Assembly: GCF_017348835.2 (NCBI RefSeq)
Contig: NZ_CP071375.1
DNA: 64,000 nt
DNA from: Escherichia coli
GTDB lineage: Bacteria > Pseudomonadota > Gammaproteobacteria > Enterobacterales > Enterobacteriaceae
Reading direction: 5' to 3' (one strand)
The notes under the pieces are model-generated. The model saw nothing but the letters and a program-made list of their open reading frames with translations, was not told the origin of the DNA and ran no database searches. Numbering within the stretch: the stretch's first letter is position 1; the number at the start of each line of letters is the position of its first letter. Position numbers and translations under genes: made by a program. Positions 2,882 to 64,000 of the stretch are shown here, piece by piece.

Positions 2882-3439
2882 ATGAGTGATGAGGGACTGG
2901 CGCCAGGAAAACGCTTGTCGGAAATCCGCCAGCAGCAGGGGCTTTCACAACGTCGTGCCGCCGAACTCTCCGGGCTGACTCACAGTGCTATCAGTACGAT
3001 AGAACAGGATAAAGTCAGCCCTGCCATCAGTACGCTGCAAAAGCTGCTGAAGGTGTATGGTCTGTCACTCTCGGAATTCTTTTCCGAGCCGGAAAAACCT
3101 GATGAGCCGCAGGTCGTCATTAATCAGGACGATTTAATTGAGATGGGCAGTCAGGGTGTGTCAATGAAGCTGGTTCATAACGGTAACCCGAATCGCACGC
3201 TGGCGATGATCTTTGAAACGTACCAGCCTGGCACAACCACTGGGGAAAGAATTAAGCATCAGGGTGAGGAAATAGGCACTGTACTGGAAGGTGAAATTGT
3301 TCTGACGATTAATGGTCAGGATTACCACCTCGTCGCGGGGCAAAGTTATGCCATTAATACCGGCATCCCGCACAGTTTCAGTAATACGTCGGCAGGTATT
3401 TGCCGAATTATCAGCGCCCATACGCCCACCACGTTTTAA
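2882..3439 (+). CDS. puuR: HTH-type repressor of the puu operon
   Basis: 185 aa, N-terminal HTH plus C-terminal cupin, sequence recognised. Confidence 0.95.
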   Translation: MSDEGLAPGKRLSEIRQQQGLSQRRAAELSGLTHSAISTIEQDKVSPAISTLQKLLKVYGLSLSEFFSEPEKPDEPQVVINQDDLIEMGSQGVSMKLVHNGNPNRTLAMIFETYQPGTTTGERIKHQGEEIGTVLEGEIVLTINGQDYHLVAGQSYAINTGIPHSFSNTSAGICRIISAHTPTTF

Positions 3440-3588
3440 TCTTTTTGTTCTGTAAGCCGGGTAAGCGCAATGCGCCCGGCAATCCATAAAGAATGTCGCC
3501 AGAAATAAACGGGCATACGGCCCGGGGATCTCTGCGCCCCGACGTTCACAAACTGCATATATCTGATAGACGTGAAACAGGAGTCATA

Positions 3589-5076
3589 ATGAATTTTCAT
3601 CATCTGGCTTACTGGCAGGATAAAGCGTTAAGTCTCGCCATTGAAACCCGCTTATTTATTAACGGTGAATATACTGCTGCGGCGGAAAATGAAACCTTTG
3701 AAACCGTTGATCCGGTCACCCAGGCACCGCTGGCGAAAATTGCCCGCGGCAAGAGCGTCGATATCGACCGTGCGGTGAGCGCAGCACGCGGCGTATTTGA
3801 ACGCGGCGACTGGTCACTCTCTTCTCCGGCTAAACGTAAAGCGGTACTGAATAAACTCGCCGATTTAATGGAAGCCAACGCCGAAGAGCTGGCACTGCTG
3901 GAAACTCTCGACACCGGCAAACCGATTCGTCACAGTCTGCGTGATGATATTCCCGGCGCGGCGCGCGCCATTCGCTGGTACGCCGAAGCGATCGACAAAG
4001 TGTATGGCGAAGTGGCGACCACCAGTAGCCATGAGCTGGCGATGATCGTGCGTGAACCGGTCGGCGTAATTGCCGCCATTGTACCGTGGAACTTCCCGCT
4101 GCTGCTGACCTGCTGGAAGCTTGGCCCGGCGCTGGCAGCAGGGAACAGCGTTGTCCTGAAACCGTCTGAAAAATCACCGCTCAGTGCGATTCGTCTCGCC
4201 GGGCTGGCTAAAGAGGCAGGCTTGCCGGATGGTGTGTTGAACGTGGTGACGGGTTTTGGTCATGAAGCGGGGCAGGCGCTGTCGCGTCATAACGATATCG
4301 ATGCCATCGCCTTTACCGGTTCAACCCGTACCGGGAAACAGCTGCTGAAAGATGCGGGCGACAGCAACATGAAACGCGTCTGGCTGGAAGCGGGCGGCAA
4401 AAGCGCCAACATCGTTTTCGCTGACTGCCCGGATTTGCAACAGGCGGCAAGCGCCACCGCAGCAGGCATCTTCTACAACCAGGGTCAGGTGTGCATCGCC
4501 GGAACGCGCCTGTTGCTGGAAGAGAGCATAGCTGATGAATTCTTAGCCCTGTTAAAACAGCAGGCGCAAAACTGGCAGCCGGGCCATCCACTTGATCCCG
4601 CAACCACCATGGGCACCTTAATCGACTGCGCCCACGCCGACTCGGTCCATAGCTTTATTCGGGAAGGCGAAAGCAAAGGGCAACTGTTGTTGGATGGCCG
4701 TAACGCCGGGCTGGCTGCCGCCATCGGCCCGACCATCTTTGTGGATGTAGACCCGAATGCGTCCTTAAGCCGCGAAGAGATTTTCGGTCCGGTGCTGGTT
4801 GTCACGCGTTTCACATCAGAAGAACAGGCGCTACAGCTTGCCAACGACAGCCAGTACGGCCTTGGCGCGGCGGTATGGACGCGCGACCTCTCCCGCGCGC
4901 ACCGCCTGAGCCGACGCCTGAAAGCCGGTTCCGTCTTCGTCAATAACTACAACGACGGCGATATGACCGTGCCGTTTGGCGGCTATAAGCAGAGCGGCAA
5001 CGGTCGCGACAAATCCCTGCATGCCCTTGAAAAATTCACCGAACTGAAAACCATCTGGATAAGCCTGGAGGCCTGA
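3589..5076 (+). CDS. puuC: gamma-glutamyl-gamma-aminobutyraldehyde dehydrogenase
   Basis: 495-aa aldehyde dehydrogenase starting MNFHHLAYWQDK; ATG at 3589. Confidence 0.95.
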   Translation: MNFHHLAYWQDKALSLAIETRLFINGEYTAAAENETFETVDPVTQAPLAKIARGKSVDIDRAVSAARGVFERGDWSLSSPAKRKAVLNKLADLMEANAEELALLETLDTGKPIRHSLRDDIPGAARAIRWYAEAIDKVYGEVATTSSHELAMIVREPVGVIAAIVPWNFPLLLTCWKLGPALAAGNSVVLKPSEKSPLSAIRLAGLAKEAGLPDGVLNVVTGFGHEAGQALSRHNDIDAIAFTGSTRTGKQLLKDAGDSNMKRVWLEAGGKSANIVFADCPDLQQAASATAAGIFYNQGQVCIAGTRLLLEESIADEFLALLKQQAQNWQPGHPLDPATTMGTLIDCAHADSVHSFIREGESKGQLLLDGRNAGLAAAIGPTIFVDVDPNASLSREEIFGPVLVVTRFTSEEQALQLANDSQYGLGAAVWTRDLSRAHRLSRRLKAGSVFVNNYNDGDMTVPFGGYKQSGNGRDKSLHALEKFTELKTIWISLEA

Positions 5077-50708: not shown

Positions 50709-52082
50709 GTGACCGCTTTTTCTACCCTGAATGTTTTGCCTCCCGCCCAACTCACGAACCTTAATGAGTTGGGTTATTTAACCATGACGCCGGTGCAGGC
50801 CGCCGCGCTTCCGGCGATCCTTGCCGGAAAAGATGTTCGCGTGCAGGCGAAAACCGGCAGCGGCAAAACGGCGGCTTTTGGCCTCGGCTTGTTACAGCAA
50901 ATTGATGCGTCGCTATTTCAAACCCAGGCTTTAGTGCTGTGTCCTACGCGTGAACTGGCGGATCAGGTGGCAGGTGAATTGCGTCGGCTGGCGCGTTTTC
51001 TGCCAAATACCAAAATTTTGACGTTGTGCGGTGGTCAACCGTTCGGTATGCAGCGTGATTCGTTGCAACATGCGCCGCATATTATCGTGGCAACGCCGGG
51101 GCGTTTGCTGGATCACCTGCAAAAAGGCACGGTATCACTGGATGCGTTGAATACGCTGGTGATGGATGAGGCCGACCGCATGCTGGATATGGGATTTAGC
51201 GATGCCATTGATGATGTCATCCGTTTTGCGCCAGCATCTCGACAGACGCTTCTGTTTTCGGCAACCTGGCCGGAAGCCATCGCCGCAATCAGCGGACGAG
51301 TGCAACGCGATCCTTTGGCGATTGAAATTGACTCAACAGATGCTTTGCCACCCATTGAACAACAATTTTATGAGACATCCAGTAAAGGCAAAATTCCTCT
51401 GTTGCAACGGTTATTAAGCTTGCATCAGCCATCCTCTTGTGTGGTGTTTTGCAATACCAAAAAAGATTGCCAGGCTGTCTGCGACGCGCTGAATGAAGTA
51501 GGGCAAAGTGCATTGTCGTTACACGGCGATCTGGAGCAACGCGATCGCGATCAGACCCTGGTACGTTTTGCTAACGGTAGCGCCCGTGTACTGGTTGCGA
51601 CTGATGTTGCTGCGCGTGGTATGGATATTAAATCGCTTGAGCTGGTGGTGAACTTTGAGCTGGCGTGGGACCCTGAAGTTCATGTACATCGCATCGGTCG
51701 TACAGCTCGTGCAGGAAATAGCGGTCTGGCGATCAGTTTCTGTGCTCCGGAAGAAGCACAGCGGGCCAATATCATTTCTGACATGTTGCAGATAAAACTT
51801 AACTGGCAAACGCCGCCAGCTAATAGTTCCATTGTGACGCTGGAAGCAGAAATGGCAACGTTGTGTATCGATGGCGGAAAAAAAGCCAAAATGCGCCCGG
51901 GTGATGTATTAGGTGCACTGACAGGAGATATCGGGCTTGATGGCGCAGATATTGGCAAAATCGCCGTGCATCCGGCGCATGTCTATGTCGCGGTCCGTCA
52001 GGCTGTTGCTCATAAAGCATGGAAACAGTTACAGGGCGGGAAGATTAAAGGAAAAACGTGCCGGGTGCGGTTATTAAAATAA
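50709..52082 (+). CDS. dbpA: ATP-dependent DEAD-box RNA helicase (23S rRNA-specific)
   Basis: 457 aa, GTG start, DEAD motif (MDEAD), sequence recognised. Confidence 0.95.
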   Translation: MTAFSTLNVLPPAQLTNLNELGYLTMTPVQAAALPAILAGKDVRVQAKTGSGKTAAFGLGLLQQIDASLFQTQALVLCPTRELADQVAGELRRLARFLPNTKILTLCGGQPFGMQRDSLQHAPHIIVATPGRLLDHLQKGTVSLDALNTLVMDEADRMLDMGFSDAIDDVIRFAPASRQTLLFSATWPEAIAAISGRVQRDPLAIEIDSTDALPPIEQQFYETSSKGKIPLLQRLLSLHQPSSCVVFCNTKKDCQAVCDALNEVGQSALSLHGDLEQRDRDQTLVRFANGSARVLVATDVAARGMDIKSLELVVNFELAWDPEVHVHRIGRTARAGNSGLAISFCAPEEAQRANIISDMLQIKLNWQTPPANSSIVTLEAEMATLCIDGGKKAKMRPGDVLGALTGDIGLDGADIGKIAVHPAHVYVAVRQAVAHKAWKQLQGGKIKGKTCRVRLLK

Positions 52083-52095
52083 TGAAATGTTGAAT

Positions 52096-52170
52096 TGCCG
52101 GGTGCAAGAGTAAACATCTGATTCGGGATTGCCGGATGCGACGCTGGCCGCGTCTTATCCGGCCTCCATA
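52096..52170. repeat. REP elements
   Basis: GCCGGATGCGACGCTGGCCGCGTCTTATCCGGCC-type palindromic units between dbpA and ttcA. Confidence 0.6.
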
Positions 52171-52210
52171 AGAGTAGCCCGATACGCTTGCGCATCGGGC
52201 GCCATCCTGG

Positions 52211-53146
52211 TTATTTCACTTCAACCACATTCAGCCGTAACTCATCCAACTGATTTTCATCTTCTTCTGGCTGCCAGCCCGCCGGTTGTAGTGGGATCTC
52301 TTCGCGATCAAACGCCAGATCACCCCCGTTAACCACTTCAGAACCGTGGGTGATGCCTTTGAAATCGAACAGGTTGGTATCGCACAGATGCGACGGCACC
52401 ACATTCTGCATCGCGCTGAACATCGTCTCGATACGCCCCGGATAACGTTTATCCCAGTCACGCAACATGTCAGCAATCACCTGACGTTGCAGGTTAGGCT
52501 GTGAACCGCACAGGTTGCACGGAATAATCGGGAACGCTTTTGCATCGGCAAATCGCTGAATATCTTTCTCGCGGCAGTAGGCCAGCGGACGAATAACGAT
52601 ATGTTTGCCATCATCGCTCATCAGTTTCGGAGGCATACCTTTCATCTTGCCGCCGTAGAACATATTTAAGAACAACGTTTGCAGGATATCGTCACGATGG
52701 TGGCCCAACGCGATCTTCGTCGCCCCCAGTTCCGTTGCGGTACGATAAAGAATACCGCGACGTAGCCGAGAACACAGTGAGCAAGTGGTTTTGCCCTCTG
52801 GAATCTTCTCTTTCACGATACCGTAAGTGTTCTCTTCAACAATCTTGTACTCAACGCCCAGCTTTTCAAGATACTCGGGCAGAACGTGTTCCGGGAAGCC
52901 CGGTTGCTTTTGATCGAGGTTAACAGCCACCAGCGAAAAATTGATTGGCGCGCTTTGCTGCAAATTGCGCAGAATCTCCAGCATGGTATAGCTGTCTTTA
53001 CCCCCGGAGAGGCAAACCATGATGCGATCGCCTTCTTCAATCATATTGAAGTCAGCAATGGCTTCGCCCACGTTACGACGCAGACGTTTTTGTAATTTGT
53101 TCAGGTTGTATTGTTCTTTCTTTGTAATTTGTTGATTTTCTTGCAT
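52211..53146 (-). CDS. ttcA: tRNA-cytidine(32) 2-sulfurtransferase
   Basis: 311 aa with PP-loop SGGKDS and CxxC motifs; 5' end abuts the prophage integrase. Confidence 0.95.
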
Positions 53147-53197
53147 TATTTCAGTTCTCTGGTACTAAATGGGGCAAATTGGGGGCAAACTTTGCAA

Positions 53198-54433
53198 CTA
53201 CGATAACCGCGCATTCAACATGGCTATCTGTTCGTCGTTCATGTCATCAATCCACATACCGTAAATTTCATACACCATCTGCGCAGTTTCATGCCCCATT
53301 TGGCTGGCTATAAATGCCGGGTTCGCTCCTGCCGTCAACAGCCAGCAGGCAAAAGTATGTCGCGTATGGTACGGATTACGGCGGCGAATACCAGCACGTT
53401 TTACTGCTGCATTCCACCTTGCCCCCAAACTGCTTACCGAGTAATAAGGTTTTTGTTTTCCGTTACACACCCTGGGCATGAAAACAAAATGCAGTTTTTG
53501 CTTTTCGGTTCTGCCGTACTCCCGATGATAAAAGGTGATTTCGCTTTTGCGATGATGCCCGGTCAGTTTGTATTGCTCCTTCAGTGCTTCAAGAGCAGGC
53601 TGCAGTAGTGTTACTGTTCGGATCCCGGCATTTGTTTTTGGGGGACCGAACATATCAAGTATCGTCAGGTTTCTTCTGACATTCACTATTCCCTTTTCGA
53701 GATCCACATCCTCCCACGCCAGAGCTGCCAGTTCCCCGTGACGAAGTCCTGAGTAAACGGCAAATTTCCACAAGTTCTGGCTCTGTCCTTTTTCACTTTC
53801 CATTAATGCATTGAATTCTGTTTTAGATAACGGATCAGGCTTTATTCTGTTTCGCTGTAATTTTTTTACTCCTTCAAATGGTTTGGTTGATATAAATCCC
53901 GACTGATACGCAAAACGCAACAGCGAACAGAGCAGGGCGATATAGTTATCAACTGTGCGCACGGTTCTTCCTTTTTTGTTGGATCTTGGATTATCCAGGT
54001 AAAGCGTTTCTCCATGCAGCAGTTCATTCCGGTAGTTTAAGATATCGCTATAACGAATATGTGATATCGGGGTACTTTCACAAATTATTATTCTGAGTGT
54101 TTTTAATTGTGATTTCGTTTTCTTCATTGTGTTTGTTGTTAACTCTGTCTCTTTAATTTTTGTCCAGATATCACAAAGCTCTCCGAACGTTTTTATGACT
54201 CTCGTTGTCACCATTTTTGCCCCAGTGCTGGACTGGGGAAAACGTCTTAAATACTCAAATTCACCGGAGTTTATTTCATGAACTATCAGCGCTCTTAAAT
54301 TTCCGGCCTTTTTAATATTACTGTTTGTAATCTCCCAGCCTTTTAATGTTTCCCGACATCGTTTTCCTCGAAACATGAACCAGATGCGAATGTATCTACC
54401 TCTAATCTCGACACCTGTTGGTAATTTAGACAT
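53198..54433 (-). CDS. intR: Rac-type prophage integrase (tyrosine recombinase)
   Basis: 411 aa, sequence recognised; ends 51 bp from the ttcA start. Confidence 0.9.
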   Translation of the reverse strand: MSKLPTGVEIRGRYIRIWFMFRGKRCRETLKGWEITNSNIKKAGNLRALIVHEINSGEFEYLRRFPQSSTGAKMVTTRVIKTFGELCDIWTKIKETELTTNTMKKTKSQLKTLRIIICESTPISHIRYSDILNYRNELLHGETLYLDNPRSNKKGRTVRTVDNYIALLCSLLRFAYQSGFISTKPFEGVKKLQRNRIKPDPLSKTEFNALMESEKGQSQNLWKFAVYSGLRHGELAALAWEDVDLEKGIVNVRRNLTILDMFGPPKTNAGIRTVTLLQPALEALKEQYKLTGHHRKSEITFYHREYGRTEKQKLHFVFMPRVCNGKQKPYYSVSSLGARWNAAVKRAGIRRRNPYHTRHTFACWLLTAGANPAFIASQMGHETAQMVYEIYGMWIDDMNDEQIAMLNARLS

Positions 54434-54434
54434 A

Positions 54435-54650
54435 TCATGAGTCTTTGATAAACTGATTTATCTTTGGATAGTTGTACCAGATAATCCCTCGTTTGCTGTC
54501 TGGCTTACCTAAAGGAGATACTCGTTTGAAGTGGAAGCCCTCCACCCAACAGTTCTGGCGGTATGCTTCAATTTGTCTGGCCCCCAGACCAGTGCGAAGC
54601 ATCAGGCCGTATTCAACCATCCACTCTTCATTAAAGATTACTTGTGCCAT
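54435..54650 (-). CDS. xisR: prophage excisionase-like protein
   Basis: 71 aa from [15 protein letters not shown], immediately upstream of intR. Confidence 0.75.
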
Positions 54651-54728
54651 CGCATCACCTCTGGCCGGCGCCAATGTTAGACTGAAATTGACGCCCGATG
54701 TTGATTATTAATAATCAGCTATGAAGTT

Positions 54729-54938
54729 TTAATTTGAATACAATGCAATTCTCGAGGACTGAAGTTTCTCGCAATTAAAATTTATCAGTTTTACTTTCTG
54801 CTCTCTGGAAACGCCTGCTTCTTTTTTACCTGAGAGCATTTTTTCGCATTCTGATTTCGTTAGTTTAGATTTTGAATATCTTGTCCAGTTAGTAGGAGTG
54901 CCACCTTCCTTTTCAATAGTGGCGGTAATTTTATACAT
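54729..54938 (-). CDS. ydaC: Rac prophage small protein YdaC (DUF1187)
   Basis: 69 aa from MYKITATIEKEGG. Confidence 0.75.
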   Translation of the reverse strand: MYKITATIEKEGGTPTNWTRYSKSKLTKSECEKMLSGKKEAGVSREQKVKLINFNCEKLQSSRIALYSN

Positions 54939-55009
54939 GAACACCTCCATTATTATTTCCAGTGGTTTGAACCGCCCCGGGTTTCCTGGAGAGTGTTTTA
55001 TCTGTGAAC

Positions 55010-55897
55010 TCAGGCTGCCAGATCATTATTTCCGATGGAAGCATAATAAGCTTTTTCTGCTTCTGCCGGAGGAATATGGCCCAGCCTTTCCAGCAATCGT
55101 CGATTGTTATACCAGTCCACCCACGTGAGTGTGGCCAGTTCCACTTCTGTCCGGTTTTTCCAGCTCTTACGGTGTATTACCTCCGCTTTGTAAAGACCAT
55201 TGATGCTCTCAGCCATCGCGTTGTCATACGAGTCGCCAGTACTCCCTGTTGATGCCAGTAATCCGGCTTCCTTAAGCCGCTGCGTGTAGGCCAGCGATAC
55301 ATACTGAGAACCTTTATCACTGTGATGGATTGTGCCGGACGGCCGACGGGCCCACAACGCCTGCTCCAGTGCATCCAGCACGAATGTTGTTTCCATGGAT
55401 GATGAGACCTGCCATCCCACGATGTATCCGGCGAACACATCAATGATGAACGCCACATAAACGAAGCCCTGCCATGTGCTTACCCAGGTAAAATCAGCCA
55501 CCCACAACTGGTCTGGACGTTCTGCCACGAACTGACGGTTTACGCGGTCGCATGCGGCAACGGCTTTCCGGCTGACGGTAGTGCGGACCTTTTTACCCCG
55601 GAGAACACCGGCAAGTCCCATAACTGCCATGAGACGTGCCACAGTGCATCTGGCCACTCTGATACCTTCCCGTAACAACTGACGCCAGACTTTACGCACA
55701 CCGTATACCTGGTGATTTTCATCGTATACGCGCTGTATCTCTTTCTTCAGCCAGTCATCGTGCTGCGCACGGGCACTGCGTTTATCCGGATGATGTCGCT
55801 GTTGCTGACAATGGTAATACGTTGACGGGGCAATATGCAGTTCGCTGCATACCGGTCCGACCCCGTACTGCTCACGCAGCTTATCCAGCAGTGGCAT
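55010..55897 (-). CDS. IS3-family transposase OrfB (DDE integrase domain)
   Basis: 295-aa frame with rve-type catalytic region; start overlaps the orfA stop (TAATG) next to an A-rich slippery stretch. Confidence 0.9.
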   Translation of the reverse strand: MPLLDKLREQYGVGPVCSELHIAPSTYYHCQQQRHHPDKRSARAQHDDWLKKEIQRVYDENHQVYGVRKVWRQLLREGIRVARCTVARLMAVMGLAGVLRGKKVRTTVSRKAVAACDRVNRQFVAERPDQLWVADFTWVSTWQGFVYVAFIIDVFAGYIVGWQVSSSMETTFVLDALEQALWARRPSGTIHHSDKGSQYVSLAYTQRLKEAGLLASTGSTGDSYDNAMAESINGLYKAEVIHRKSWKNRTEVELATLTWVDWYNNRRLLERLGHIPPAEAEKAYYASIGNNDLAA

Positions 55898-56223
55898 TAT
55901 TTTTTCCAGAGGCGGTCGAACTCCGCCTTCGCAAAATAAGCGGAAGCCTGGCGAAGGATATCGTTACTGCGGCGCAGTTCACGATTTTCACGTTCCAGCT
56001 CTTTCAGACGCTGACGTTCAGCGGTGGTGAGTCCACCATCACCACTCCCGGTATCCCGCTCATGCTGGCGAACCCAGACACGCAGAGTCTCCGGCGTACA
56101 GCCAATCTTTGGGGCAATGGAACAAATTGCCGCCCACTGTGAGTCATATTCATCCTGACTTTCCAGAACCATACGAATCGCCCGCTGACGGACTTCGGGG
56201 GAAAAACGAGTATTTTTAGTCAT
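55897..56223 (-). CDS. IS3-family transposase OrfA (HTH)
   Basis: 108 aa [42 protein letters not shown]... recognised as IS629/IS1203-type OrfA. Confidence 0.9.
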
Positions 56224-56277
56224 CCTGTTTACCTCTTTCTCAGGGAGTTTAGTCTCCAGGATTTCCGGGGCGGTTCA

Positions 56278-56438
56278 GTTCGTTTATTCCATCTTTCGAG
56301 TGCTTCTTTTTCACTTCCACCATAACCGGTTCGGGATTCGCATCCGTTACACTTCGCTCGGTAATATCCTGAAATGGCTTTCACCGTTACTGATGGACAA
56401 CCACAAAATGGACATGGTTTAACATTGTCATATCTCAT
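56278..56438 (-). pseudogene. ralR: restriction-alleviation protein RalR (Lar), 3' end interrupted by the IS element
   Basis: Frame MRYDNVKPCPFCGCPSVTVKAISGYYRAKCNGCESRTGYGGSEKEALERWNKR runs into the IS terminal repeat, after which 15 IS-encoded codons follow. Confidence 0.75.
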
Positions 56439-56494
56439 AATTTTTCTCATAAAAAATATTTCAAGTTGGCGGTGCATTACACCGCCAGGCTGAA

Positions 56495-57304
56495 TTATTC
56501 CTCTGAATTATCGATTACACTGTATTCCCCGGTTAATACAGAGGAATCTGCAGGATCGATTGTCAGTGGTTCCTTTTCATCCATTGATACTGCACGCTGG
56601 ATCTCAATTGATACGGGCAGATATTTGAACAGGCGACGAATAGCCGTTTTCTTTGCCATTTCTTCCCAGTGAGTTACCCACGGCCCGTTATTACCAGCTT
56701 TACTCAGGCTGCGCACCAGCTCAATCTGTTTGCGCGTCATAACTTCAAACTGAGTACCTCCGTCTTTCAGTCTTGCGACAGCATAGACGTGGGTAACCGG
56801 GGCATCTTCGTTTTCTCCCGGGCGGTGTATTAACTTTTCATCAAGGCCAAATTCGAAGCTAAACTCGTCACCTTCACGGACAACACGGGCTGACAGGCTG
56901 GCGATTTGACCAGAACGGCGAGCCAGATCAATCATGCCGCGATAGCCAATGATTAGCTGAACGTTCTTTTTACCGCTCTTTTCGTTTTTATTACCAAAAG
57001 GCAGTAAATATGCATGACCGAGGGCGCTACCTGGCTCAAGTCCGAGCTGTGAACACTGTACGATCGCACTGACAAAACTCATAGTGTCACAGTTTCCTAA
57101 CGCCGGAACTTTACGAATTTCTGTGGTGGCGATACGGATCATACGTTCAGCCGTCATATGGCGTGGAAGAGCTGCTGCCAGTTGCTCTTTCATTGATGGC
57201 TGGTTAATAAAACTAATCACGTCGCTATTTTTAACTGCTGCTGGTGCACGGTTTCCCTGAGTTTTTTGCAGATCGGCTTTTGCGATTGGTGGTTGCTTAG
57301 TCAT
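56495..57304 (-). CDS. recT: recombinase RecT (single-strand annealing protein)
   Basis: 269 aa from [18 protein letters not shown], sequence recognised. Confidence 0.95.
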
Positions 57305-58436
57305 TTGCATATTCCTTAGCCCAGCGGGGCAGTGATAATGTCTTAATAGCTGGCCATTCATCGGTATTCAGGCAGTCAGACAGGGTTCGCAGATTGCGGT
57401 GATATTCCTGTTGACCTGCCAGTTTTGCTTCTTCGCCCATCATGAAAATTTCAACCGGATAACGTCCGCATTCAATAGTTGTGCTGGCAACCAGAAAAAC
57501 GAAAGTTGGCTGCACTCCAAACTGTGCTTCATAACCGTCACTGTAGAATGCATCCTGAACGTGATAGCGGTAGTCGTAATAAGCGGTTTTGAATCGTTGA
57601 ATATCCGCCGTAGTTTTCACGTCCATGATCCAGTGAAATTCAGGGATAATTTTGTCCGGACGGCACCGACACAAAATTCCTGTTTCAGGATCTTCCCAGT
57701 AAATTGATGATTCAGCGTGTCCGGCGCTTTCAACAAGCCATTGCCCCAGCGGCAAAGCCATAACGCTTTGATACATGAGTTCAATTTTCCGGCCTTCTTC
57801 CGCAGTGATAACCGTTTTTCCTGTGCTTGCGCATTCCATCAGAAACGCTTTCTCTTCTTCTTTTCCGGCGTTTGTACGGCGGTTAAATTCAGGTGCTACG
57901 ATAAAGCGGTTACTGAATTCTTCCGGTTCAAGTACCCGGCAGTGGAAAGCAGTTCCTAAATCGAGCGTTTTTGTCTTTGTGGTGTCCACGGGGGCATTTT
58001 TACGCCACAAATATAGTGCCGGAGTATCAGCAATGTCATCGAGCTGAGACTTACTGATACCGGGACCCGCGTGGTAATTCTCATTCGAAATTCCGTAATA
58101 AATACCTGGCTCTATGTCTTCTACGATTACGGGATCTGCGACTTCGCCAGTTTCATCACTGCAATCGCGATGCGGATCGCTGCCAGCATTCTCATTGTGC
58201 GGATGTTCAGCGCCTTCCATTTCCTCCGGATCATTTTCCTTAGCTTCAACCTGACTCTCTTCATCGAATGTTTCCTGGTATGTTGCGTCGCCCATCACCG
58301 CACCACAGTCAGGGCAGTTATCCCCGCCAGTCTGGCCGCAGGCATTGCAGGCTATTTCCGGTTCCTGTTGCACTACTGGCTCAGGTTGATTCATATCTGG
58401 GCTGGTTTTTTCCGTTTCTGGCTGGTTCTGGTACAC
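57297..58436 (-). CDS. recE: exonuclease VIII RecE, C-terminal nuclease portion only (5'-truncated)
   Basis: 379-aa frame ending ...[11 protein letters not shown] and overlapping the recT start; K-12 RecE is 866 aa; frame open upstream only to a stop at 58521-58523; first start-like codon is GTG. Confidence 0.8.
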
Positions 58437-58474
58437 ACAATCGCGAGTCTGGATCCCCTTACCTGGCTGACACC

Positions 58475-59227
58475 ATGCATTTGTCAGCAGAGGAGCATGG
58501 TGCGTATTTGTTGCTGATGTTCAATTACTGGCAAACAGGAAAGCCAATACCTAAAAACAGGCTGGCAAAAATTGCCCGTCTGACTAACGAGCGATGGGCT
58601 GATGTTGAACCATCCTTGCAGGAGTTTTTTTGCGATAACGGCGAGGAATGGGTGCATCTTCGGATTGAGGAAGATCTGGCATCAGTCAGGGAAAAATTAA
58701 CCAAAAAATCAGCCGCAGGAAAAGCATCTGTTCAGGCCAGAAGAAGCAGAAAGGAAGCAGATGTTCAAACAAAACAAGAGAGAAATTTAACAGGTGTTCA
58801 AACAGATGTTGAAGTGGTGTTTGAACATGATGTCAACACAAAGGCAACTAATAAAGATACAGATAAAGATCTAAAAACAGATCCCCCCCTAAATCCCCCC
58901 CGGGGGAATCGAGGTGTCAAAAAGTTTGACCCTCTGGATATTGCTTTGCCGAACTGGATTTCTGTCTCGCTTTGGCGTGAGTGGGTTGAATTTCGCCAGG
59001 CATTGCGAAAACCGATTCGAACGGAGCAGGGCGCTAACGGGGCGATACGGGAGCTGGAAAAATTCCGCCAGCAGGGTTTTTCACCTGAGCAGGTGATTCG
59101 ACACAGCATCGCCAATGAATACCAGGGCTTGTTCGCGCCAAAAGGTGTTCGACCTGAGACGTTACTCCGACAGGTTAACACCGTCTCGTTACCGGATAGT
59201 GCGATCCCGCCAGGCTTCAGGGGGTAA
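58475..59227 (+). CDS. ydaU: prophage replication protein, DUF1376 plus DnaT-like C-terminal domain (YdaU-like)
   Basis: 250 aa from [19 protein letters not shown]; upstream in-frame residues (SPYLADT) still look like DUF1376, suggesting the true N-terminus is missing. Confidence 0.6.
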
Positions 59228-61404: not shown

Positions 61405-62559
61405 ATGGATTATTTATCAGAAGTGTTAAAAATCATTGAAGGTGCAACAAAGGCAAATGCTTCGATGGCTAGTAATTATGCTGGGTTGCTGGCAGATAAG
61501 CTCGAACAAAAAGGGGAGGTCAAGCAAGCCAGAATGATAAGAGAAAGGTTGCTTAGAGCTCCCCAGGCGTTGGCAGGAGCTCAAAGGGCTGGAGGTGGGA
61601 TATCTCTGGGCTCATTACCGGTAGATATTGATAGTCGACTCAACACTGTTGATGTCAGTTATCCTAAATTAGACAGTTCAGAGATTTTTCTGCCTGCAGC
61701 AATCAGTACCCGTGTTGAAGAGTTTATCACTAATGTTCAACGTTATGATGAGTTTGTTAAAGCTGATGCAGCATTGCCGAGTCGTATGCTCGTGTATGGA
61801 AAGCCAGGAACAGGTAAGACTATGTTATCTAAGTACATCGCTACCCGCTTAGATTTTCCACTTCTTACAGTGCGTTGCGATACTTTGATTAGTAGTTTAT
61901 TGGGACAAACCAGCAAAAATCTTAGACAGGTTTTCGATTATGTAATGCAGAGGCCATCAGTGCTTTTTTTAGACGAATTTGATGCTTTAGCTGGAGCAAG
62001 AGGTAATGAGAGAGATATAGGTGAGCTTCAGCGAGTTGTCATTTCACTATTGCAGAATATGGATGCGGCATCAGAGGATACGGTAATTATTGCCTCAACT
62101 AACCATGAGCAACTTCTGGATCCTGCAATCTGGAGGCGATTTAGCTTCAGAATTCCAATGCCTCTGCCTGACATACATCAGAGAGAGTTAATTTGGAAAA
62201 ATCGTTTAAAGAATATGATATGTAGCGATCTAGATTTAAGTGATTTATCAAGAAAATCGGAAGGATTATCCGGAGCAATAATTGAACAGGTGAGCTTGGA
62301 TGCACGTAGGGATGCAGTTATTGAAGGTGCAAGTGTGATAAATCACCACAAATTGTATAGGCGTTTGTATCTTGCTCAATCGCTTATGGAAGGTGTAAAT
62401 TTAAGCACTTACGAAGATGAAATTCGTTGGTTACGTTCTAAAGATAAAAAATTATTTTCTATCAGAGTTCTTGCTAATTTGTACAAACTTACATCAAGAG
62501 TAATTTCAAACATTCTGAAGGAGTCAGGAGCATATGAGCAGAAGGGGTACACAGTTTAG
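61405..62559 (+). CDS. classic-clade AAA ATPase with ~125-aa N-terminal extension; first gene of the ATPase-protease cassette
   Basis: 384 aa; Walker A GKPGTGKT (61798-61821), Walker B VLFLDEFD (D190/E191 at 61972-61977), sensor-1 IIASTN, arginine-finger region DPAIWRRF; GGGAG RBS; AT-rich. Confidence 0.85.
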   Translation: MDYLSEVLKIIEGATKANASMASNYAGLLADKLEQKGEVKQARMIRERLLRAPQALAGAQRAGGGISLGSLPVDIDSRLNTVDVSYPKLDSSEIFLPAAISTRVEEFITNVQRYDEFVKADAALPSRMLVYGKPGTGKTMLSKYIATRLDFPLLTVRCDTLISSLLGQTSKNLRQVFDYVMQRPSVLFLDEFDALAGARGNERDIGELQRVVISLLQNMDAASEDTVIIASTNHEQLLDPAIWRRFSFRIPMPLPDIHQRELIWKNRLKNMICSDLDLSDLSRKSEGLSGAIIEQVSLDARRDAVIEGASVINHHKLYRRLYLAQSLMEGVNLSTYEDEIRWLRSKDKKLFSIRVLANLYKLTSRVISNILKESGAYEQKGYTV

Positions 62560-64000
62560 TAACGCAAAAGTTACAAACCCAACGTTAAGAATCCCTTTTT
62601 CCAGTAGTGACTTGGGTGCAATAGTAAACGCTGGCGGTGGGGCAAAGGTATTGGTTGATGTAACAGCCGAATATAGACAAGGGCTAGTAAGAAATTTAAC
62701 AACCAGTAAACATTATTTAGAATCCAAACTTTCAGAGTACCCTGGAAGCTTGGGTACTTTGGTTTTCAAATTAAGAGACCAGGGAATAGCCAAAACGCAT
62801 AGGCCGAACAAAATTGCTCAAGAGGCTGGATTGCAAAATGCCGGTCATGCCAAAATAGATGAAATGTTGGTTGCTGCTCATGCCGGCTGTTTTGACGTAT
62901 TAGAGTCAGTCATTTTAAATCGGAATATTAAAGCGATTTTGGCTAATCTAAGCGCGATTGAGCGCATTGAACCTTGGGATGAGAATAGGAAGGTTCCGGG
63001 AGGCACTGATGGTTTGTTTGAATCATCAAACATCCTTGTACGACTATTTGAGTACACAGGTGAAGATGCAACTTACAACAACTATGAAAACGTTATTTCT
63101 ATATTAGAACAATACGGAGTTAAATATGATGAAATTAGACAAAAATGTGGTCTTCCCTTATTAAGGATAATGGATTTATCCCCAAGTGATAGATATATAT
63201 TAGACATTCTCATTGATTACCCGGGTATAAGAACGTTAATTCCAGAACCAAAATATTCAGCATTCCCGGTTAGTGTAAGTGATTCTGTTGGCATTGAAAC
63301 AAATAGCTTTCCCGTACCATCAGAAGAATTACCCATTGTTGCTGTATTTGACACTGGGGTAAGCCCCATCGCGGCAACAATTACTCCTTGGGTAGTGAGT
63401 AGGGAAACATACGTAATTCCTCCTGATACGAGTTATGAACATGGGACTATGGTGTCTTCATTGATATCAGGCGCTCATTTTTTAAATGACAATCATCCAT
63501 GGATTCCTGATACAAAATCTAAAATCCATGATGTTTGTGCTTTAGATGAAAATGGATCTTATATATCAGATTTAATTCTGAGGCTAGCAGATGCTGTAAA
63601 TAAAAGACCAGATATAAAAGTCTGGAATTTGTCTTTGGGAGGCGGACCATGTAATGAGCAGATGTTTAGTGATTTTGCGATGGAGTTAGATCGGCTCAGC
63701 GATAAATTTGGTATTTTGTTTGTAGTTGCTGCAGGTAATTATGTAGATGAACCTATACGTACATGGCCAAATCCTGATCCGCTTGGAGGTGCTGATTTAA
63801 TTTCCTCTCCTGGAGAGTCAGTCCGAGCACTAACAGTTGGTTCAGTTTCTCATATGGAAGCTAATGATGCTTTAAGTGAAATTGGAACACCGACACCATA
63901 TACTCGTCGTGGCCCTGGTCCTGTATTTACTCCAAAGCCAGATATAATCCATGCTGGCGGTGGGGTTCATAGACCTTGGAATGTAGGAGCAAGCAGTTTA
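62534..64000 (+). CDS. subtilisin-like (S8) serine peptidase, partial (runs off window end); second gene of the cassette
   Basis: ATG at 62534 overlaps the ATPase 3' end by 26 nt; catalytic Asp in VAVFDTG (63350-63352), His in YEHGTMVSS (63440-63442), S8 motifs VWNLSLGG and VVAAGN (Asn at 63737-63739); catalytic Ser expected beyond 64000; ~270 aa precede the catalytic core. Confidence 0.8.
   Translation, partial: MSRRGTQFSNAKVTNPTLRIPFSSSDLGAIVNAGGGAKVLVDVTAEYRQGLVRNLTTSKHYLESKLSEYPGSLGTLVFKLRDQGIAKTHRPNKIAQEAGLQNAGHAKIDEMLVAAHAGCFDVLESVILNRNIKAILANLSAIERIEPWDENRKVPGGTDGLFESSNILVRLFEYTGEDATYNNYENVISILEQYGVKYDEIRQKCGLPLLRIMDLSPSDRYILDILIDYPGIRTLIPEPKYSAFPVSVSDSVGIETNSFPVPSEELPIVAVFDTGVSPIAATITPWVVSRETYVIPPDTSYEHGTMVSSLISGAHFLNDNHPWIPDTKSKIHDVCALDENGSYISDLILRLADAVNKRPDIKVWNLSLGGGPCNEQMFSDFAMELDRLSDKFGILFVVAAGNYVDEPIRTWPNPDPLGGADLISSPGESVRALTVGSVSHMEANDALSEIGTPTPYTRRGPGPVFTPKPDIIHAGGGVHRPWNVGASSL

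Follow-up and report, generated by a model that had tools for sequence, protein, structure and literature searches.

The window, which is the whole 64,000-nt stretch of Escherichia coli DNA analyzed here (contig NZ_CP071375.1 of RefSeq assembly GCF_017348835.2), carries an insertion sequence (IS) within a degraded Rac prophage that lies beside ttcA; the insertion is in the prophage arm nearest the integrase gene. The protein-coding genes around it are all on the minus strand: recE' comes first, followed by recT, ralR, the IS, rcbA, xisR and intR. The genes that frame the insertion are:

57297–58460, minus strand: recE', a 5'-truncated pseudogene of which only the C-terminal PD-(D/E)XK part is left (RefSeq annotation, Pfam and comparison with K-12)
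56495–57304, minus strand: recT, upstream of ralR (RefSeq annotation of strains PE164 and F2_81 mapped to the window)
56229–56438, minus strand: the ralR' fusion open reading frame, 69 aa (ORF list; RefSeq WP_096220726.1 in PE164 and F2_81)
54729–54938, minus strand: rcbA (ydaC, DUF1187; RefSeq and K-12 annotation; Pfam PF06688, E = 1.2e-38)
54435–54650, minus strand: xisR
53198–54433, minus strand: intR
after intR in the direction of transcription: ttcA, a chromosomal gene

Between ralR' and rcbA lies the element itself, whose parts and immediate borders are:

54968–56277, minus strand: IS629-group (IS3 family) insertion sequence, complete, 1310 bp (terminal inverted repeats and full-length 100% matches in other E. 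coli replicons)
56253–56277, unstranded: left inverted repeat (IRL), the orfA-proximal end, TGAACCGCCCCGGAAATCCTGGAGA in transposase orientation (repeat finder)
54968–54992, unstranded: right inverted repeat (IRR), the end at the 3' side of orfB, TGAACCGCCCCGGGTTTCCTGGAGA on the plus strand (repeat finder)
55897–56223, minus strand: orfA, 108 aa, with an HTH_Tnp_1 domain (ORF list; Pfam PF01527, E = 2.9e-12)
55010–55897, minus strand: orfB frame, with HTH_21 (PF13276) and rve (PF00665, the DDE integrase core, E = 1.5e-26)
55900–55905, minus strand: A6 slippery run (TGG AAA AAA TAA TG) at the orfA/orfB overlap, a putative -1 frameshift site (sequence; RefSeq 'programmed frameshift' note)
55826–55942, minus strand: ALIL frameshift-stimulating pseudoknot (Rfam RF01497, E = 1.3e-31; 120.3 bits, gathering score 50)
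54965–54967, unstranded: first copy of the target-site duplication, GTT (single GTT in the K-12 empty site)
56278–56280, unstranded: second copy of the target-site duplication, GTT (single GTT in the K-12 empty site)

The sequence-only reading had described a 1310-bp IS3-family element with terminal inverted repeats, and reading positions 54700–56700 yields exactly this: the transposase is encoded on the minus strand, the IS begins with TGAACCGCCCCGGG... at 54968 and ends with ...CCGGGGCGGTTCA at 56277, and its terminal inverted repeats are 25 nt long, imperfect (22/25, or 88%, complementary) and terminate in TG...CA (TGAACC...GGTTCA). The span of 54968–56438 given for the feature in that reading holds at its start and fails at its end, as the IS stops at 56277, the stretch 56278–56438 is the surviving 5' part of ralR, and position 56438 belongs to the ralR start codon and not to an IS terminus. 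A single occurrence of the 28-nt IS end sequence was found in the window and none in 100 shuffles, and a blastn search of the window with the element returned no further copy, partial or complete.

Since a 3-bp flank agreement has a chance of 1 in 64 of arising by itself, the flanking GTT triplets, which had been taken as the mark of a real transposition, were tested against an empty site, the Rac region of K-12 MG1655. A comparison with an IS-free Rac had been proposed from the sequence, and K-12 MG1655 provides it: it aligns to window positions 51198–54967 (99.4% identity) and 56278–58463 (99.9%) in colinear fashion, and the two flank alignments overlap at K-12 locus positions 3768–3770, which is exactly one GTT. 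Because K-12 has this single GTT without an IS at the same position, the event is a simple transposition that duplicated 3 bp of its target, and the element at the ralR site is thus confirmed as a genuine simple insertion. The rival account, in which the flanks were not originally contiguous and the junctions stem from an assembly artefact or an IS-mediated rearrangement, draws on the fact that assemblies often go wrong at multi-copy IS elements and on the case of O111:H- strain 11128, where the IS1203 within recT has no duplication and abuts unrelated phage sequence. Here, however, colinearity of the flanks with K-12 is base-exact, and identical junctions recur in two complete genomes, which come from separate laboratories on different continents, as well as at the contig ends of draft assemblies; we rejected this account on these two grounds and regard its probability as practically negligible.

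The target flank at 54949–54965 (ATTATTATTTCCAGTGG), which lies right where the IS inserted, agrees with the frameshift-site region of the IS at 55896–55912 (ATTATTTTTTCCAGAGG) in 15 of 17 nucleotides. We treated this likeness as probably due to chance; IS629 has been described as lacking a target consensus (Rump et al., PMC3271280).

The coding content of the element has the layout expected for the IS3 family, in which orfA and orfB are joined by frameshifting and transposition follows a copy-out-paste-in route (bioRxiv 10.1101/2023.06.07.543989). Its length of 1310 bp lies within the family range of ~1.2–1.55 kb, its imperfect repeats end in 5'-TG...CA-3', it has two overlapping reading frames (orfA with the helix-turn-helix domain, and orfB in the -1 frame relative to orfA with the DDE/rve core) whose overlap is ATAATG, the A6 run followed by the ALIL pseudoknot provides a programmed -1 frameshift signal at the sequence level, and its GTT duplication falls within the family's 3–4 bp (duplications of 3 bp also flank four other copies). 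From this arrangement we infer a -1 frameshift site at the A6 run, and a shift modelled there gives an OrfAB of 404 aa, which is the 1214-nt joined RefSeq coding sequence at the same place in PE164 and F2_81, where the locus is labelled 'IS3 family transposase, programmed frameshift'. The two reading frames, the slippery run and the pseudoknot are all intact. On what is known of the family, a -1 shift at the A6 run, boosted by the ALIL pseudoknot, would produce the OrfAB DDE transposase, the element would be copied out as a circle, and the circle would be pasted into ralR through staggered 3-bp cuts, leaving the GTT duplication.

As to identity, the element shows 99.5% identity to a copy in the Stx1 phage BP-4795 that its depositors called IS629, 98.2% to copies in Stx2a phages (unnamed in the match list) and 95.9% to the IS1203 annotated in O111:H- 11128. 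The name 'IS629-like' proposed earlier is therefore apt by its match to a depositor-named IS629, and by sequence the element is assigned to the IS629/IS1203 group of the IS3 family. IS629 subtypes differ by 4–5%, IS1203 and IS3411 are isoforms, and the duplications made by IS629 measure 3–4 bp (Rump et al., PMC3271280). Compared with IS629 (isoforms IS1203, IS1203v and IS3411), the element at the ralR site is alike in its 1310 bp, 25-nt imperfect repeats and TG...CA ends, in its orfA/orfB -1 frameshift layout, ALIL pseudoknot and 3-bp target duplication, and in its prophage location, which is that of most IS629 copies (PMC3271280). We found no structural difference, and the element represents one subtype inside the described 4–5% spread.

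The sequence-only reading placed the IS directly upstream of recT and recE and supposed that it could alter their expression by outward promoter activity or polarity. The two are indeed adjacent and on the same strand, and only 56 bp separate ralR from recT. The order on the minus strand, however, places the IS 3' of recET, and neither part of the proposal survives. Polarity acts on downstream genes only. The IS cannot be polar on recET because it is downstream of them, and in the minus-strand gene order the genes exposed to any polarity or read-out would be rcbA, xisR and intR. A consensus scan of positions 54650–56550 gave 4 promoter-like sites against 2.3 expected, with no outward sigma-70-like promoter at either end of the IS, and a promoter leaving the IRL end would in any case run antisense to recT. 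One promoter-like site lies upstream of ralR (56464–56437) and overlaps its ATG; it is not relied on here. Moreover, recE is truncated at its 5' end and, with the preceding immunity/early region of Rac gone, the recET operon was already without its native upstream control. An effect of the insertion on recET expression is consequently very improbable; the recET genes lie upstream of the insertion and are untouched by it, and the insertion offers no handle on their regulation.

The gene that is altered is ralR. Merging the flanks over one GTT recreates a 64-aa RalR ending ...NKRTTGNNNGGVHV*, in place of which the window has the 69-aa fusion frame, and the earlier claim that the last ralR codons had been replaced by IS sequence is thus correct. 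Native codons 1–54 occupy 56278–56438, with the last base of codon 54 (Thr) supplied by the IS, and they are followed by an IS-encoded part of 15 codons and a TAA stop at 56229–56277 (TAA at 56231–56229). The displaced 3' end of the gene persists on the far side of the element:

54931–54964, minus strand: ralR 3' remnant, the last 10 codons (TGNNNGGVHV) and the stop (flank reconstruction; K-12 alignment)

The insertion therefore trades 10 native codons for 15 IS-encoded ones, and the new tail is strongly basic. RalR is a non-specific DNase toxin (Guo et al., PMC4041452), in which changes at positions 14, 37, 39, 49, 51 and 52 lower toxicity and K52 is required for DNase activity (PMC4041452). 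The Pfam domain Lar_restr_allev (PF14354) spans residues 5–54 and scores 53.2 bits in the fusion versus 53.5 in the intact protein, and all six of these positions lie before the junction and are retained. K52, at two residues from the new junction, is so near to it that the tail swap could inactivate or change RalR.

The last 15 residues of WP_096220726.1 are encoded by the IS inverted repeat. PGAP/RefSeq names this protein 'type I toxin-antitoxin system endodeoxyribonuclease toxin RalR' with no flag on the IS-derived tail, and the label 'RalR' conceals a chimeric C-terminus.

The earlier description of ralR as a restriction-alleviation gene alone missed its role as the toxin of the RalR/RalA type I toxin-antitoxin system (PMC4041452). 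RalA, the antitoxin, is a 179-nt trans-acting sRNA encoded antisense to ydaC that pairs with 16 nt inside ralR (PMC4041452). Both partners of this interaction are present in the window:

54754–54932, plus strand: intact gene for the sRNA antitoxin RalA, which runs antisense to rcbA (full-length Rfam RF02694 match over positions 1–179 of the model, 225.1 bits where the gathering score is 170; K-12 b4714)
56301–56316, minus strand: RalA-pairing site in ralR, 16 nt, mRNA AAGTGAAAAAGAAGCA (located in the sequence; defined in PMC4041452)

The RalA gene ends 35 nt from the IS, and the pairing site lies in the ralR mRNA 21 nt 5' of the insertion point and is retained. The pairing blocks, RalA 54816–54831 (TGCTTCTTTTTTACCT) and ralR 56301–56316 (TGCTTCTTTTTCACTT), share 11 contiguous matches (TGCTTCTTTTT). 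The sequence-level components of the type I system are present: an sRNA gene of 179 nt with a 5' stem-loop and a Rho-independent terminator, a Lar-domain RalR that keeps its toxicity residues though its C-terminal tail is non-native, and the 16-nt complementarity between RalA and the ralR mRNA. Relative to the RalR/RalA locus of K-12, the flanking DNA (99.4–99.9% identical), the full-length RalA and the 16-nt complementarity in both partners are alike, whereas the toxin here has an IS-encoded tail instead of TGNNNGGVHV, the IS separates ralR from ralA so that they are now 1.3 kb further apart, and ralR no longer overlaps ralA and rcbA at its convergent 3' end. RalA acts in trans, and the system would therefore be expected still to work unless the tail swap harms the toxin; judged from the sequence, RalR and RalA probably still work as a toxin-antitoxin pair in trans, with mild impairment of RalR as the alternative.

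On the downstream side, the start of rcbA originally overlapped the ralR stop, and 29 bp now separate it from the end of the IS. Effects on expression would fall on rcbA, xisR and intR and on the transposase, and transcription from ralR would read directly into orfA.

The TAA of ralR' (56231–56229) ends 5 nt before the orfA ATG (56223–56221), just past a Shine-Dalgarno-like GAGG. Because the stop sits so close to this start codon, termination-reinitiation could couple transposase synthesis to ralR expression.

The allele is rare. With an 800-bp empty-site query, a contiguous empty site was found in 1735 of 5426 complete E. coli genomes, and a filled site in 2 of the 5426, namely PE164 (pig, China) and F2_81 (pig, Australia), which are independent assemblies and the only complete genomes with both junctions at 100% identity. 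The window matches neither of these genomes exactly, with 6 mismatches to F2_81 over 13.3 kb and 2 to PE164 over 8.3 kb, and its source is thus closely related to the two. In a collection of 15 billion proteins the exact 69-aa fusion protein was found on 9 contigs, versus at least 1000 for intact RalR, and the recE'-recT-ralR' context was common to all of the fusion-protein contigs inspected (about 8 of ~9). The element itself, by contrast, has matches in 4260 of the 5426 complete genomes, and copies 100% identical to it reside on both the chromosomes and the plasmids of PE164 and F2_81. The porcine host lineage carries about 25–30 copies of this IS; the tally of IS copies elsewhere in the genome, which had been suggested from the sequence, came to 26–32 places per chromosome in these two relatives. 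Such identical copies, together with another about 9 kb away in F2_81, indicate that the IS has recently been active in the PE164/F2_81 lineage. We found no report naming ralR together with IS629, or describing the ralR insertion site, in the literature searched; the allele is already public and automatically annotated in existing genomes, and it provides a clean lineage marker for a small porcine E. coli group.

Four other, independent IS629/IS1203-group insertions were found in the intR-recT arm of Rac in other E. coli strains, three of them with 3-bp duplications:

strain VTB97448v (chicken): 96% identical IS at positions 3148–4457 of locus L003, 3 bp to the rcbA side of the ralR site, same orientation, GTG duplication
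O121 strain RM8352: IS with 23 mismatches at 1341–2650 of locus L009, between intR and xisR, ATC duplication
strain 3059 (human): IS with 55 mismatches at 1341–2650 of locus L010, between xisR and rcbA, ATC duplication
O111:H- strain 11128: IS1203 at 3577–4886 of locus L004, in recT with unrelated DNA adjacent, no duplication

These insertions belong to the same IS group and share the orientation of the prophage genes, and they differ from the copy at ralR in target position and IS subtype (23–55 mismatches); the O111:H- 11128 copy differs further in its lack of a duplication and its association with a deletion. The junction search recovers same-orientation insertions only, and an orientation bias is not to be read from this set. 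A search of metagenomes for IS629 ends no more than 30 bp away from a ralR anchor (CCGGGGCGGTTCA N{0,30} CATCTTTCGAG...) returned 0 matches and so adds nothing on a hotspot or on prevalence. Since 62% of IS629 copies are reported to lie in prophages (PMC3271280), the repeated insertion of IS629-group elements in the integrase-proximal arm of Rac fits a known preference for prophages.

The chicken isolate raises the question of whether the ralR 3' end is a favored adaptive target, with insertions selected for disarming or attenuating the RalR DNase or for changing rcbA expression. In its favor are this second, independent IS629-group insertion in the same orientation only 3 bp away, the closeness of K52, a residue essential for DNase activity, to the junction, and the loss of the rcbA overlap with ralR. 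The Lar domain and the six reported toxicity positions are, however, kept with the domain score unchanged, the allele is as rare as described above, elements of the group sit in neighboring non-toxin sites as well (intR/xisR, xisR/rcbA and recT), and the regional preference for prophages (PMC3271280) fits the pattern better than selection on ralR; we therefore consider selection unlikely. Two events 3 bp apart are a hint of a local hotspot, too few for proof. A stronger version, in which the ralR 3' end and rcbA start form a true IS629 micro-hotspot and the insertion rewires the toxin-antitoxin locus with the ralR promoter driving the transposase, strikes us as more doubtful still, a long shot; in this reading RalR gains its basic tail, and transposition would be linked to whatever governs the RalR/RalA module.

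Taken together, we hold with high confidence that the locus records one recent simple insertion of an active IS629-group element at ralR codon 54/55, in a degraded Rac prophage of a porcine lineage, and that it is likely near-neutral. A near-neutral passenger event is the most likely overall reading of the sequence. This is a known IS, a known kind of event and a known cryptic prophage, and as a textbook IS3-family insertion its significance beyond correct annotation is small.

The degradation of the prophage is itself visible in the window. Relative to K-12, Rac carries a ~5.25 kb internal deletion from recE (K-12 position 1415953) to ydaU (1421208), which affects window positions 57297–59227. 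Homology to K-12 ends at 58463 within recE and restarts at 58459 within ydaU, placing the deletion joint at ~58459–58463, with 5 bp common to both sides. The deletion removed the recE 5' part, racC, ydaE, kilR, kilS, sieB, ydaF and ydaG, as well as racR, ydaS, ydaT and the start of ydaU, and the prophage is therefore without its repressor/immunity region and without the KilR toxin.

Several minor observations concern the surroundings of the insertion. In F2_81 (NZ_CP043542.1) a second, base-identical IS629 copy lies at 2591419–2592728, ~1 kb past window position 64000, with its own AGG duplication and inverted relative to the copy in ralR; the two copies enclose ~9 kb of prophage, and an inversion of that stretch could arise between them. 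The Rac-like prophage of F2_81 is also annotated with iteA (an anti-phage ATPase) and iteS (an S8 anti-phage peptidase), in a region at record positions 2592882–2596275 that maps to about 61405–64000 of the window; the two genes come after ydaV and genes for DUF1627 and DUF977 proteins, where the Rac of K-12 has other content. Finally, between dbpA and ttcA (52127–52163, plus strand) there is a weak Rfam naRNA4 match of 29 bits, below the gathering score of 59.5, and this REP-like hairpin is most likely an ordinary REP element.
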